Assembly (NCBI RefSeq): GCF_030013595.1
Contig: NZ_CP122769.1
Length of the DNA: 64,000 bases
From: Escherichia coli
Lineage (GTDB): Bacteria > Pseudomonadota > Gammaproteobacteria > Enterobacterales > Enterobacteriaceae
Strand: one strand, 5' to 3'
Below are positions 25,101 through 31,100 of this stretch, piece after piece (position 1 is the first letter of the stretch; the number at the start of each line of letters is the position of its first letter). Position numbers: made by a program.

Positions 25101-28100
25101 CCTGAAACACGATCCGTGAGTAATTGAAGGGAAATATCAGCTGCTCGCGTGGCCTGGCTTGCAGATATTTTTGCATGCAAGAAAGCCCCCTTTCTGAATT
25201 TGGCCGGAGTTAGCCCTGTAATATCCTCAACACTAAAATTAAGTGAGGAAAGAATTGAAAATAAGTCGCAGCTAATGACTTCAGTATTATTAGGCATTTT
25301 ACCCGTCCCCGTCCATATTCATGATACGGTAATGATACCAGGTCGATATCATTACCTAATAACTTGGTGAAAGAAAATCTGTAATTTTTAGTTAACTAAA
25401 ATTAATAGTCTCAATACTGCTCAAGAATTCTTTTTTTACGTCCGGTGTAAAAGGTATACGTTCAATGTATTTATAAAGTGTCGCAAATGTTTTGGGTTCA
25501 ATGTTTCGGGAGATAATGTCATCAATCGGATCTTCGAACATATTGATAAAGATATCGACATGCTGCTCTCCGCTTTCTGATGCCTTTGAAAGAAGACTGA
25601 CCACTTCAATGTAGCGATTATCCTGCTCTGCAATGAACAACCAGTGCCCTTCGTTAAAGGCGGGTGCAGCGCTGTAGCGTTTAACAACAATTTCTGAAAG
25701 ATTATATCCTGCCTGATTCAGCAGATTATTAAAGTTGAGTTGAGTTGAAATCACGTCTAACGTTTTCATAAAACCTCCTTTTCATCTGTACTTATTATAC
25801 TGTTACCCAACCCCCAGCTAATAACCTCCCAGCAAATTTTCAGAAAAAAAACACCGCCTTTTATTTAAGATTGAACACATCCTTTTTAAATACCAACAAT
25901 GATTATGAAACCACAATGTAAGTGAAGCGCCATTATGGAAAAGTAACTTTTGTGCAGCTCATAAATTTTATTTATTAGTTACGTTCCTTTGTCTTGTGGT
26001 CGAAGTTCATCAGGCGAGGCCTAAGAAGAATATGTGTGGTTTCAGCCAATGCGGTGATCGGGCATTATAATTTGGTCGGGCTATTATACGTGGGTAAAGG
26101 TAGTGGTAGGGAGAGGATCAGGTTAAATTGCATTTTCCCGGTTGCCTTCCCTGGCCTACCGGTTTCAGGTCAGACGCTAAGACCAGCGGTAATACTTAAA
26201 GTAGTCCTCATTTACAGCCAAAAACTCCCTTAAACCGTTCATTAATCCCTTTTCAAACGCTGTAACGATAAACCGGTATCCGTCCAGTGTTTCAATGTAG
26301 TAGATCCCGCCCGGTGTTATTCCAACATGCAACACCTCGGCTGTCATCATAAACTGGCCTTCCGGAAAATCATGCGACAGGTATATAAAACCCGTCGTGG
26401 CCGGTGCGGGTGTGGCATTCACTAAGACACCGTTAAACTGCTGCCCGTGCCTCGCCGGTACAAGCTCACTTCCCCTGGTTGACTTATCGAGCAGCCCCTT
26501 AACATCTTTTTGCTCTTTAGATGAGGTATAGCCCCGCACATCACTCCCATCACCTGGGCGAGAGCCGGTGCCGACATGTGCAAGACGACGGTAAGCGCTG
26601 CGCATATTGATGTGGCAGGATGCCCCGGCTCTACCCTGAAGCCTTACGCCAAAATCTTCGCAAAGTAATAAAATCTGACGTAGCTGGTGTTCATACACGG
26701 ACGCAGAAAGTGAAAGGTTGAAACTGGAAAAGGTCAGTTCTAAAACCTTTTCCCGTTTGTCATTGAAATGTGCTTCCAGCCTGATGATTGGCTTTTCCGA
26801 CATTGCAAAAGCTTTGTCCGTTGCTCTGTACCGGCATTCATCTCCGAAACATTCTTCAACAACGCTGGCTATAACCGTGTCGTGATCGCCATCTTCCGGA
26901 GCTGGCACAAAGATTTCAAATTGTGCCGGTGTCTCCGGCTCCAGCAGAACGGGATATAAACGCGGAGAATTAAGCAATGCGCATTCAGAATTAATGAGCT
27001 TAACCCAGGCGCTTTTGTCGTCCGGATCCTTAAGCTGCTGTCCAAGGTTATCGCAAAAGTCTACTATCTGACGGGTATGCTCATCCGTGACTGCACAGAT
27101 CAGGTTAAGACCATGCGTGGCCATACTCAATTCCCGGGTTCGGGACTGGGAATTGATCGACCAGGGGTTAAGTGAAAGCGAAATAGGGCTTATGGAAGGG
27201 ACGACCGTCTCATTCTGCAAATCTGTAAGCTGGCAGTTCGCAGTAGGCTTCGGGGAAAGGGTACTAAATATGTAACTTGCCTGTTGTTTAGTACTGGCCT
27301 GGATATAAAACATCGCGTCCATGCTTGTATCCCGGGATGAAATTGAAAATAGCTTCATTTTTAACCTTAATGGATGAGCGATTTATAGTCATGTGCTGAC
27401 AAATGGACATTATGTGCGCCATCATTCCATTCAAAGAATAATCGATACTTAGAGTTTACTCGAATGGAGGAATAACGGTTTGACGTCATTCTTAAGCGTT
27501 CATAACGCAAGCTGTTGGATAATAACTCCCGCTCACTCTGGACATTATCCAGCGTTTCGAGTCGACACAGAATCGCGTTAATAATTTCAGAAGGAATACC
27601 TGCCGTTGTTTTTCCATTACGGAAGAACTTTTCAAGCCGTCTGTCTTTAAATGAATGGATCATAGTTCCTCCGTAATAATTGACCTTAAAATTAAATTAA
27701 AAGGGCTTTGAATTAATGAATCCCTAAAATGCGGGCGGCGACTGCCAGCTGCTTATCACTTAACTGACGCTGGTGGGTTAAAGAAGACTTAAGGCTTTCC
27801 AGAAAATTATTACTGCTGGATTGCTGGGTGATTGCATCAACCATTTTTTGATGAGATCTGCACCATGCATTGAACGCAGAGTTGTGGGCGTTTTCAGTCC
27901 TCAAACGCTCGTTTTGCAAGGATGCTGACACTTTGCGGGCAGCTTGAGCATTAATGCGGTACAGCGCATTCAGCGTGTAAGAAGTGCGGGTCGTTTCGAG
28001 GCTGTAACCCGTGGCTTTACAAGCCATACAGCGACTTCTATAAAAATGCTTACGCTCTCCCCGACCATTGCATTTATCGCAAAGAATACGAAAAGTATAT

Positions 28101-31100
28101 TCCGCAGTACCTTTTACAGAATCAACACAGCGGATTTTTGCGCTGGAGATTTCAATTCCACTGCGATCATAATATTTGGTCATAATGTGATTCCTCCGGT
28201 TAGTTCTGGAGTAATCATGACAGAATGAATCTACTGGCTAATAACCTGAGAGTAAATATTTTAAAAAAACATTGAGAGAGGGTCTGCAAATTTATACACG
28301 AAGGATTCAAATATAATTTTGTTTAAAAAATTAAGAGCATTCTGAAGTAAAAGTGCATCAAAAAGCATTCATGGATAAATCATGTACTGGTGCCAGCCAT
28401 TTAAACGCGGGCATTGTTCCGGAGTGATTAAACGGTTTAGCATCATAGATTAAAACCAAAAGGAAGGCGTCCTTCCCGTCTCGGGAATATTACTTTCCCG
28501 TTTGCAATTTAAGAGCCACTTAATGAGAAAGTAATAATTAAGTCATGCTCAACTCTACATATTACATTGAGGATGGCGTAACAGGGTACGGCATACTACC
28601 GCACCCTTCTGAAGAGCTTATGTTTGAGGGAATTCTATAGCAAATGTGGCCGTGCCAGATTGACCACTTACAGCGGGAGTAACGGGATACGTGCGCTCTT
28701 CACCATTACCAAGATCCAGTGACAGCGATTTAGTTTCACCAGGCTGGACCGTAACTCCGGCAACCGTAACGCCGAACTGGGCATTTTTCTGAACAGTCAG
28801 GGTTCCGTTTAACTGTCCGGTAATGATAGAACCGTCCTGACGCCGCAACACACTGGTTCGGATGATGGCCAGCGGCGTGTTGTCCGTTGCTTTCAGTGCT
28901 ACGGCTGTGGCCAGCGTCTTGAGATTATCCAGCATAATCAGATTCGCAGGCTGGTAGGTAAAATTAAGCGTTTTAGTGGTCCGGTTACCTGATTCGTCAA
29001 TAGCCAGTGCCTCCAGATGATACATCTGTCCCGATTCGTCAGTGTTGGGGAAGATTCTGGGGTATTCCGGAATAAAGACATCCTTGGATAACGGCGTGAA
29101 TGCCAGGGTGACCTTTTCAGAGTTAGGTCCACCAGCGAGCTGAAGCGATGTCAGGGAAGCATCCCCAGAGGCATCAGTAACGCTTATGCGAAGGTTCTCA
29201 AGCCCTTTAACCAGTTTTCCTTCTGCGTCTGCGCCATTAAAACTGAACGCGATAACCGGAAGCGTTGAGTCAATTTTCAGCGGTGCATTAAGCGTTTTGG
29301 TTCCGGTGTTTCCAACAAGATCCGTGGCAGAGACGCTAACCACCGTATAATCCCCGTCCGGTAGACCAGCGTATGAGAAGGTGGCGTTTTTGGTTTATAA
29401 TCGCTTTCACTGACGGTCACAGGCTTCAGCGTGAAAGGTTCCCCCCGGGCATTTTTAAGGGTGGCTTCGAAAACTTTGGTATCCCAGTAGCTGATGTTCC
29501 AGGCGTTGACGCGATCATTATCGGTGGCCGTCATAGTGATTGTCTTGGAGGCCTTGTTTACCTGAGCGACATTAACCACCGGTGGGTTGTTATCCCAGAT
29601 AACCGTAAAATTACCAGCAAGCGCATCGAATATGCTGTCACCATCTTTTCCCGAGTAAAGGTGCAGATACTCAAATCCTTTGTCACTGGTGTAGTTGAAG
29701 TTAACCGTCATCTCGCATGAACTTTGTCCGATAGGTATAGTGCAGAACCAGGCTGCATTTTTTACCGTTCTGAACTTTTGCACGTATGGTCGGGGTTCAG
29801 CGGTTACCTTTATGCGGCTAATGGTGGCGGTTTTAACGCTGATTGAGGCCTGAGTTAACCACTCACTGGTATCACTCCGGTACATCTCTTTAGCCACTAT
29901 CTTCGGGGCTATTTCCATCGCCGGGGCTGGAGTGAAGTTGAGGGAGTTATGATGAATTCGTCTTACTCCTCCTGCCAGAGTCTGGAATTCATGATAAGTA
30001 TCCCCCACATTGGGATATATGTATTTGAAAGTATAAATATTATAAGTGCTATCGGACGTCTGGAAATTCGAGTCCGCCCAGCCATATTTGGAACCGTTAA
30101 CAGCAGTAAAGTCACTTTTTTTCCTTAATACCCGTACGGAAATAGGGTTCTGGAAGACGGTCATGCCAGACTGATAAGTGACCCATGATCCGGTAGTGGC
30201 GTCCTGCACCTGGATGATATCGTCAGGCTTAACCCGATCAATTACGCTTCGGCGGCTTAGTTCGATCCTGTTTCCCGCTTTGTCATAAAGGTAGATCCCC
30301 ACTTTATATTCAGAGCGGTTTTCCGGTGCCAGGGCATTGCTGCTTGCGTCGGCGACTTGAACGGTTACGCTACCTTCCACTGTATTAATTTCCGCTGGCT
30401 TTTTACGCTCCACTCCAGCGGCATCGGTTATGAAATATTCAGCATTAGCAAGCCCGGAACCTTTATCACTCAGTCCATTAAAGACCAGTGCCTGGACGCT
30501 GGCGTACTGCATACCGGCTGGTACTGAAGTGAAGATCGCTTCGCTGCCAAAGTTCCACCCGTTTCTCGTATAACTTATGGTACCCGTTGCCGGAGGCGTT
30601 CGGTCAATTGCAAGCGGGTAATCCTGCCGGGAGACCTCCTTCCCTTGCAAGTCGGTAATCACCTCTCTGAGGGTGAAGCTATCTTCTCCCATCGCTGGTA
30701 CGGTCAGAGTCTTGCCGTAATAATCAAAGCCTGTCGAAGATGTGGTACGGTCATCTACGGTAACCAGGCTGCTTTTCGTGCTCCAGATGAGGCTCCCGTC
30801 ACTTTTCAGCAGACTGAGCGTAATATAACGGTCCAGACCGGAAATAACGGCAACGTCAAAGCTCGTTACCGGATTAATCCATACGGATGCAGGCGATACG
30901 GTCTTTTTAACGTTCAGGGTATCTTTAAAGCTGAATTCTGCGATTTCAGCGGAAGCTCCTGCGCTGAAACCTGCAAATGCAATAAGCAGGGCTAGTTTGA
31001 TTTTCATGGGTTGTCTCCTGATCAGGTTCCCCATGATACTTTTTCAGTGTTCGAGATCTTTTCGGGAAAATAGCTAATTTTAATGTTTTTCTTTTCTGCC

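Follow-up and report, generated by a model that had tools for sequence, protein, structure and literature searches.

Which protein, if any, holds in check a HigB-like toxin that is encoded without a HigA repressor? The question is raised by a locus in a 64,000-nucleotide (nt) stretch of Escherichia coli contig NZ_CP122769.1 (hereafter, the window, to which all coordinates refer unless another sequence is named). In this locus, the minus strand carries three successive open reading frames (ORFs) in head-to-tail arrangement: a zinc-ribbon gene, a higB-like gene, and a gene for a 393-amino-acid (aa) protein (hereafter, the trio).

28183..27713, minus strand: zinc-ribbon protein gene, 156 aa (ORF; "YuiA family")
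27663..27367, minus strand: higB-like gene, 98 aa (RelE/ParE superfamily, Pfam PF05015; ORF and family profile)
27358..26177, minus strand: gene for the 393-aa protein (ORF)

An earlier note on this sequence proposed that the locus may be an unconventional toxin-antitoxin arrangement. The arrangement is real and conserved, while toxicity and neutralization stay predictions. The reading that we favor, and to which we give a little less than an even chance, is that the trio is a non-canonical HigB type II-like module in which the 393-aa protein replaces HigA. The 98-aa protein would be a HigB/RelE-type toxin (presumably a ribosome-dependent mRNA endonuclease), and its partner would be the product of the gene in the HigA position, which is not a HigA repressor. 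The N-terminal ~240 residues of this partner (a duplicated beta-beta-alpha module) would bind and neutralize HigB, whereas the C-terminal ~100-residue domain would be separable, common to other mobile elements, and unneeded for neutralization (i.e., a possible sensor or accessory). The zinc-ribbon (YuiA-family) protein, rather than being the antitoxin, would probably be a co-transcribed accessory that serves as a regulator or as a DnaJ-like zinc-finger helper. The likely role of such a module would be plasmid addiction, or protection and competition during establishment.

On the basis of profile searches, the 98-aa protein is clearly a member of the HigB family, as the earlier note had read it. 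It matches the Pfam model HigB-like_toxin (PF05015; E = 6.2e-18; residues 4-88 of 98 against model positions 2-88 of 91), PHROG 3066 ("toxin of TA system"; E = 9e-18), and the solved Proteus vulgaris HigB (4mct_B; E = 7.5e-6), and we infer a RelE-type fold. Its close homologues form a narrow clade and are all 98 aa long. The residues of P. vulgaris HigB that are critical for mRNA cleavage are His54, Asp90, Tyr91, and His92 (PMC5027501). The window protein aligns with P. vulgaris HigB over residues 1-94 and keeps the equivalents of Asp90 and Tyr91 (D92 and Y93), which are invariant among the aligned orthologues. It also carries a four-residue C-terminal extension that ends in an invariant His98; H84 and H91 are likewise invariant. 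The ratio of nonsynonymous to synonymous substitution rates (dN/dS) of higB is 0.00 to 0.16, the lowest in the trio (0.08 to 0.22 for the neighbors), and the HigB-like protein is the most conserved of the three. In RefSeq, it is named "type II toxin-antitoxin system RelE/ParE family toxin," while the zinc-ribbon protein is a "hypothetical protein" and the 393-aa protein a "flavin reductase (family protein)."

The spacing of the genes recalls that of higBA. The stop codon of higB is separated by 9 nt from the ATG of the 393-aa gene, and the zinc-ribbon gene ends 49 nt upstream of higB. A strong GGAGG Shine-Dalgarno sequence serves as the higB ribosome-binding site, and only a weak AAGG is found ahead of the 393-aa gene; this weak site and the 9-nt gap suggest that translation of the 393-aa gene is coupled to that of higB. 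A toxin gene with the large gene directly downstream is found both in the window and in the orthologous loci (9 to 15 nt). The higBA operon of Rts1 (P. vulgaris) and its plasmid relatives (NZ_CP113181, IncP; NZ_CP009570) are plasmid-borne, encode a toxin of the same PF05015 family, and likewise place the toxin gene first, with the start of the partner gene 8 to 9 nt downstream in both systems. However, HigA is a repressor of the XRE type of ~100 aa, whereas the partner in the window is a multidomain protein of 393 aa without a helix-turn-helix (HTH). The window operon also differs in its extra upstream zinc-ribbon gene and in a promoter type shared with other operons. Among canonical plasmid relatives of the window HigB (35 to 38% identical), the HigA gene lies 8 or 61 nt downstream of higB.

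The nearest sister clade (HigB 42 to 44% identical; 103 aa; ~800 mostly Klebsiella MOBH plasmids, e.g., those of the IncHI1B/IncFIB pNDM-MAR type, NZ_CP146028 and NZ_AP022143) shares with the window protein the core SSIRV.SKYRL.F.W and is likewise found on large MOBH/MPF_F plasmids without an annotated HigA. There, higB is the first gene of the operon, with no zinc-ribbon gene upstream, and is followed 10 to 11 nt downstream by an unannotated gene encoding 105 to 111 aa and then by a small membrane protein gene. Two of these operons were examined as follows.

L022 2501-3544, strand not stated: sister-clade HigB operon, Klebsiella MOBH plasmid
L023 2501-3560, strand not stated: sister-clade HigB operon, Klebsiella MOBH plasmid

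The 105- to 111-aa partner resembles neither the 393-aa family nor the zinc-ribbon family, and the Klebsiella operon looks like a second uncharacterized non-canonical HigB module. A YuiA homologue does occur on these Klebsiella plasmids, tens of kilobases (kb) from higB and directly upstream of a gene for an immunoglobulin-like (Ig-like) protein. Thus, the same downstream slot is filled in related plasmids by three different partners (HigA, the 105- to 111-aa protein, and the 393-aa protein), i.e., it appears to be a variable partner slot. Conserved toxin folds with unrelated partners are known from partner-swapping ("hyperpromiscuous") type II networks, such as those of the Panacea/PanA antitoxins. 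The concept is the same here (HigA, a 105- to 111-aa protein, or a 393-aa protein in one gene slot), but the window partner, which is unusually large and built of repeats, gave no match to Panacea (DUF4065) or to any other antitoxin domain described so far. Partner swapping by toxin families is therefore already established, and what sets this case apart is a large, repeat-built partner with no recognized fold. Since the 393-aa gene occupies the HigA slot, the sister clade does without a zinc-ribbon gene, and YuiA is found elsewhere on those plasmids, these comparisons point to the downstream gene as the partner of HigB.

The same comparisons bear on the alternative that the zinc-ribbon protein is the antitoxin and the 393-aa protein a co-transcribed cargo or accessory, which we consider unlikely. 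As the earlier note described, the upstream gene encodes a 156-aa DnaJ-type zinc-ribbon protein: it has one CxxCxGxG...CxxCxxxG center (C35, C38, C52, and C55), followed by helices with a conserved F..SL....LS.KQ..VA motif. Its similarity to DnaJ_CXXCXGXG is weak (E = 1e-3 in Pfam; E = 5.5e-4 for the NCBIfam DnaJ model); it matches phrog_4046 (E = 1e-12) and bears the RefSeq family name "YuiA family." The gene lies upstream of higB and in the same operon in all trio loci, evolves as fast as antitoxins do (30 to 60% identity between lineages; dN/dS, 0.08 to 0.18), and is nearly never disrupted (at most 2 of 1,834 records are partial); its zinc center and helical C terminus could bind protein or DNA. 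Most type II systems place the antitoxin gene first, and a zinc-binding antitoxin has a precedent in MqsA, so the order would suit such a role. In MqsR-MqsA, as in the window, a RelE-superfamily toxin is encoded beside a zinc-binding protein, but the mqsA gene follows that of its RelE-fold toxin and MqsA has a C-terminal XRE HTH, whereas the zinc-ribbon gene in the window precedes the toxin gene and its product has a DnaJ-type CxxCxGxG center and no detectable HTH. Neither a known antitoxin domain nor similarity to HigA or to Protein Data Bank (PDB) entries was found in it. The gap between the zinc-ribbon gene and higB is 40 to 63 nt across the trio loci, versus 9 to 15 nt between higB and the large gene, and relatives in the HigB family have their antitoxin downstream. 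The zinc-ribbon protein also has phage homologues, in Pbunavirus and an Erythrobacter phage; these make up the N-terminal half of proteins of ~310 aa, with no toxin nearby. Because of these toxin-free phage sequences and the YuiA homologue far from higB in the Klebsiella plasmids, the zinc-ribbon protein would not be an obligate partner of HigB.

Returning to the 393-aa protein, searches against Pfam, NCBIfam, PADLOC, PHROGs, and PDB sequences yielded no match. The absence of a visible HTH remarked on in the earlier note is borne out by these profile searches: neither an HTH nor a known antitoxin domain was detected, and a comparison with HigA by hhalign revealed no similarity (probability, 0.1%). 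The RefSeq name "flavin reductase" found no support from profiles, sequence, or fold, including the flavin mononucleotide-binding split-barrel, and appears to be a propagated misannotation. RefSeq start codons for this gene are also inconsistent (i.e., products of 381 or 315 aa). Homologues that are as little as 30% identical conserve residues 1-12, and M1 and K2 do not vary among them; this supports the 393-aa reading of the ORF. In the protein database, the family comprises only ~20 clusters, with lengths of 391 to 394 aa. An AlphaFold2 (AF2) model built from 15 homologues (mean predicted local distance difference test [pLDDT], 71; predicted template modeling score [pTM], 0.63) divides the protein into three regions.

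26633..27358, minus strand: residues 1-242, four beta-beta-alpha units forming a duplicated two-unit module (AF2 model)
26459..26632, minus strand: residues 243-300, a low-confidence and partly helical linker (AF2; pLDDT, 35 to 55)
26177..26458, minus strand: residues 301-393 plus the stop codon, a beta-rich C-terminal domain (AF2 model and alignments)

By hhalign, repeat R2 is homologous to repeat R4 (probability, 94%; E = 1.5e-7). Residues ~294 to 393 are the most conserved part of the protein in the alignment. This C-terminal domain also has homologues that stand alone as proteins of 118 to 187 aa. They are encoded within plasmid- or phage-like clusters of small genes, where the neighboring genes encode an orphan C5-methyltransferase, a ParB-type protein, a ligase, and the like. 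A profile of the domain found no relative in PDB or Pfam and gained few members in the protein database, and a tblastn search against phages gave no match. The domain thus looks like an independent mobile-element module that was fused onto the repeat region.

Natural mutants provide a further view of the two parts. Two insertion sequences have entered the 393-aa gene independently of each other, in plasmids whose HigB is identical to that of the window: IS1 near codon 358 (pIncHIA, Klebsiella pneumoniae) and IS21 after codon 258 (p270k, Salmonella Goldcoast). The C-terminal domain is dispensable for the carriage of an intact higB. Disruptions were counted over the plasmid database PLSDB (72,556 plasmids), with a record called partial if the segment was covered over <80% of its length in one place.

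393-aa protein, residues 1-242: 7 partial records (at least 2 of them artifacts) among 1,302 records with a match
393-aa protein, residues 243-393: 11 partial records, plus 7 records without the segment, among 1,295 records with a match
HigB: at most 3 partial records among 2,100 records with a match
Zinc-ribbon protein: at most 2 partial records among 1,834 records with a match

The two N-terminal artifacts are a split at the record origin and an error-ridden assembly. These counts are compatible with an essential N-terminal part, as our favored reading would have it, and are suggestive only, since the numbers are small and the plasmids related. In one assembly (L027 2196-2492; from SRR25604655), codon 9 of higB is a premature TGA while both neighbors are intact, which is either a natural toxin knockout or a sequencing error; a nonsense allele of higB is expected if HigB is costly.

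A partner with a separable, mobile-element-specific C-terminal domain is also what would be expected if HigB were the effector of an abortive-infection-type defense or competition system. In that case, the 393-aa protein would be sensor and antitoxin in one: on detection of a cue from a phage or rival plasmid, its C-terminal domain would release the toxin. The neighborhood is rich in orphan methyltransferases and other establishment or anti-defense-type genes, and toxin-antitoxin genes are enriched in such plasmid regions (PMC11541004). We nevertheless regard this as very unlikely: a scan of all three proteins against PADLOC-DB v2 (E ≤ 0.1) gave zero matches, no trigger is known, and plasmids with a destroyed C-terminal domain persist, although this shows only that the domain is dispensable for carriage. 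A broader version of the idea, which we rate as improbable on the whole, would make the 393-aa protein the founder of a new class of large repeat-built antitoxins. In it, the N-terminal module would clamp HigB and the C-terminal domain would sense, HigB would be a triggered effector (for abortive infection, exclusion of rivals, or establishment control) rather than a means of simple addiction, and YuiA would be a dedicated cofactor.

The trio is a core backbone module of IncHI plasmids, present in ~1,300 PLSDB plasmids including R27. The HigB clade (≥60% identity) is found in ~1,299 records, the 393-aa protein in 1,303, and the zinc-ribbon protein (≥60% identity) in 1,297. Every fetched locus with a full-length homologue of the 393-aa protein (11 divergent loci, from IncHI2, IncHI1A, IncHI1B, and unplaced metagenomic plasmids) keeps the trio in the same order, with 9 to 15 nt between higB and the large gene. 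One of them is the following.

NC_002305.1 64810-66827, strand not stated: trio in R27 (IncHI1A; homologous locus)

In the most distant locus (L002), the trio is intact though the large protein is only 30% identical and the surrounding genes differ. Between lineages, HigB is 60 to 89% identical and the 393-aa protein 31 to 53%. The dN/dS values of all three genes are below 0.25, indicating purifying selection and thus that all three are functional. A constrained toxin beside fast-evolving neighbors is the usual pattern for toxin-antitoxin pairs, and the conservation of the trio matches it.

The strict co-occurrence over ~1,300 plasmids and 11 divergent loci, together with purifying selection on each gene, would also suit a true tripartite system that needs both neighbors, in which, e.g., the 393-aa protein neutralizes HigB and the DnaJ-like zinc-finger protein folds or stabilizes the 393-aa protein or regulates the operon. 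Such a system would have functional analogues in the toxin-antitoxin-chaperone (TAC) or omega-epsilon-zeta modules, and the zinc center belongs to the cysteine-rich type of DnaJ, a substrate-binding element in chaperones. TAC systems likewise have a three-gene operon around a HigB-family toxin with a chaperone-flavored third gene; their antitoxin, however, is a HigA-type HTH protein, and their SecB-like chaperone is encoded last, whereas the zinc-ribbon gene comes first in the window. No SecB or HigA signal was found in any of the trio proteins, nor was there an identifiable chaperone-addiction segment or another known chaperone fold. Given also that the zinc-ribbon family occurs independently of HigB and that the sister clade does without the gene, we think a need for both neighbors rather unlikely.

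Several points weigh against our favored reading. Two of the four critical residues of P. vulgaris HigB are replaced in the window protein (E55 for H54 and K94 for H92), so that toxicity is not assured. The pairing of HigB with the 393-aa protein is itself a prediction. Where the C-terminal domain stands alone, its homologues have no HigB-like gene beside them, and the adjoining ORFs that were translated are unrelated. The disruption counts are small and not phylogenetically independent, and the near absence of disruptions in the zinc-ribbon gene would also fit an essential antitoxin or repressor. Because all trio loci are IncHI-like backbones, the synteny could partly reflect shared ancestry. 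An AF2 model of a HigB-(GGGGS)6-393 fusion, based on a paired alignment of 10 loci (pLDDT, 58; pTM, 0.48), contained low-confidence segments without gain; HigB itself reached pLDDT values of only 45 to 73 with a poorly formed sheet in this shallow-alignment model, which speaks neither for nor against a complex.

The replaced residues are also the starting point for a reading in which the HigB-like protein no longer inhibits growth and is a repurposed RelE fold (a regulator, or a ribosome- or RNA-binding factor) that acts with the 393-aa protein in establishment or conjugation, with no antitoxin involved. The promoter that the trio has in common with other backbone operons, in place of a private autoregulated one, and the tolerated disruption of the 393-aa gene would fit. 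Those disruptions, however, hit the C-terminal part only, and a nonsense allele of higB exists. The C-terminal half of HigB is very strongly conserved, including D92-Y93 and the invariant His84, His91, and His98. Active sites are known to vary within the HigB family, and H84, H91, and H98 might be stand-ins for the lost histidines; catalytic competence is therefore plausible from the alignment, and we take loss of toxicity to be a distinctly improbable outcome. If HigB did prove nontoxic, the locus would be an example of a repurposed RelE fold.

As for its expression, the trio is a discrete transcription unit, since it has a terminator-like hairpin upstream, its own promoter copy, and the next promoter copy downstream. 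This is in line with the earlier observation of three tightly spaced genes behind a sixth copy of a repeated promoter. The relevant features are as follows.

28461..28477, minus strand: terminator-like hairpin with T-run, downstream of the Ig-like protein gene that precedes the trio; upstream boundary of the unit (putative; consensus scan only)
28211..28270, minus strand: putative trio promoter ("copy 6"; repeated motif in register, activity predicted)
28270-28251, minus strand: T/A-rich tract of the trio promoter (sequence)
28247-28237, minus strand: promoter element AGGTTATTAGC at the -35 region (repeated motif)
28222-28214, minus strand: extended -10-like TGT-CATGAT of the trio promoter (sequence)
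25817..25849, minus strand: next promoter-element copy (element at 25817-25827; repeat motif in register), putatively driving the following operon and marking the downstream boundary of the unit
330-340, 13010-13020, 20712-20722, 25817-25827, and 28237-28247, minus strand (promoters): copies of the shared element (motif)
33439-33449, plus strand (promoter): copy of the shared element (motif)

The element AGGTTATTAGC occurs six times in the window (≤1 mismatch; 1.18 copies expected; six copies reached in 0 of 100 shuffles), and every copy keeps the same position relative to a start codon and a -10-like hexamer. The backbone-operon promoters have a common architecture, which combines a T/A-rich tract with (A/T)GGTTATTAGCC at the -35 region; ~16 to 20 nt farther downstream follows a -10-like hexamer. 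The element also precedes the trio in R27, IncHI1B, and other IncHI-like loci, with the exception of the most distant locus (L002). The promoter type is common to at least six operons in the window (i.e., the trio would share it with at least five other backbone operons), and no operator was identified at the trio promoter. Most of the non-tra genes of R27 are responsive to the TrhR/TrhY-HtdA circuit (PMC7366339). Given this responsiveness and a promoter type shared by many IncHI backbone operons, expression of the trio is probably under plasmid-wide control rather than classical antitoxin autorepression.

An RNA antitoxin (i.e., a type I or type III system) was considered and set aside. An Rfam scan of positions 24000-30000 (E ≤ 1) found no RNA family, though an undescribed RNA is possible; no tandem repeat array was found near higB, and no conserved structure was predicted in the 5' untranslated region of the trio.

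Multidrug resistance and colistin resistance have major vehicles in the IncHI1 and IncHI2 plasmids (R27, R478-like plasmids, and mcr-1 carriers), and two of the three trio genes have no functional annotation or a wrong one despite their conserved place in the backbone. Our literature search found no paper describing the trio, its RefSeq accession, or YuiA in plasmids, and the R27 transcriptome paper did not single out the trio. If the 393-aa protein neutralizes HigB, it would represent a new, structurally unrelated antitoxin type for one of the best-studied toxin families, and thus a previously undescribed control of a common bacterial toxin. It would also show concretely that the partner in the HigA slot can be replaced. 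The trio could act in the maintenance or establishment of IncHI plasmids and help to explain why they persist, which would make it a possible target for plasmid curing.

YuiA-family genes recur beside the genes for large Ig-like proteins of IncHI plasmids (27713-28183 with 28618-31008 in the window; L024 3983-7039; L025 1676-6182). The YuiA-type gene lies downstream of the Ig-like gene in the window and directly upstream of one in a Klebsiella IncHI1B plasmid, and in L025 the trio lies upstream of the Ig-like gene. These positions hint that the YuiA zinc-ribbon is tied to conjugation-associated Ig-like surface proteins and not to HigB. A 392-aa neighbor of YuiA in a Klebsiella plasmid was rejected as an orthologue of the 393-aa protein (no similarity by BLAST) and, from its sequence, may be ParB-like. 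The phage homologues of the zinc-ribbon protein (Pseudomonas phage F8 ORF012, L016 2444-3373; Erythrobacter phage vB_EliS-L02, L017 2375-3322; ~310 aa) have an extra C-terminal region that ends in a CxxC...GIGPICA motif.

Some related plasmids (L006 6295-7046 and L008 8401-9158) encode a canonical TacA-TacT (GNAT acetyltransferase) pair downstream of the trio, at a distance of a few hundred base pairs (bp) to ~2 kb, and this part of the backbone seems to accumulate toxin-antitoxin modules. The window comes from an IncHI2 plasmid with mcr-1. Hundreds of IncHI2/IncHI2A plasmids from E. coli, Salmonella, Enterobacter, and Klebsiella match the trio region at 100% identity, and mcr-1 plasmids such as pM160133_p1 are collinear with the entire window. 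By this collinearity, the window carries mcr-1.1 with ISApl1 and the repHI2 initiator gene, which is flanked by an iteron array with 81-bp spacing (12 copies) and a set of repeats with 21-bp spacing (positions of these features taken together: 10847-13642, 39233-40834, 41060-42148, and 42343-42895).

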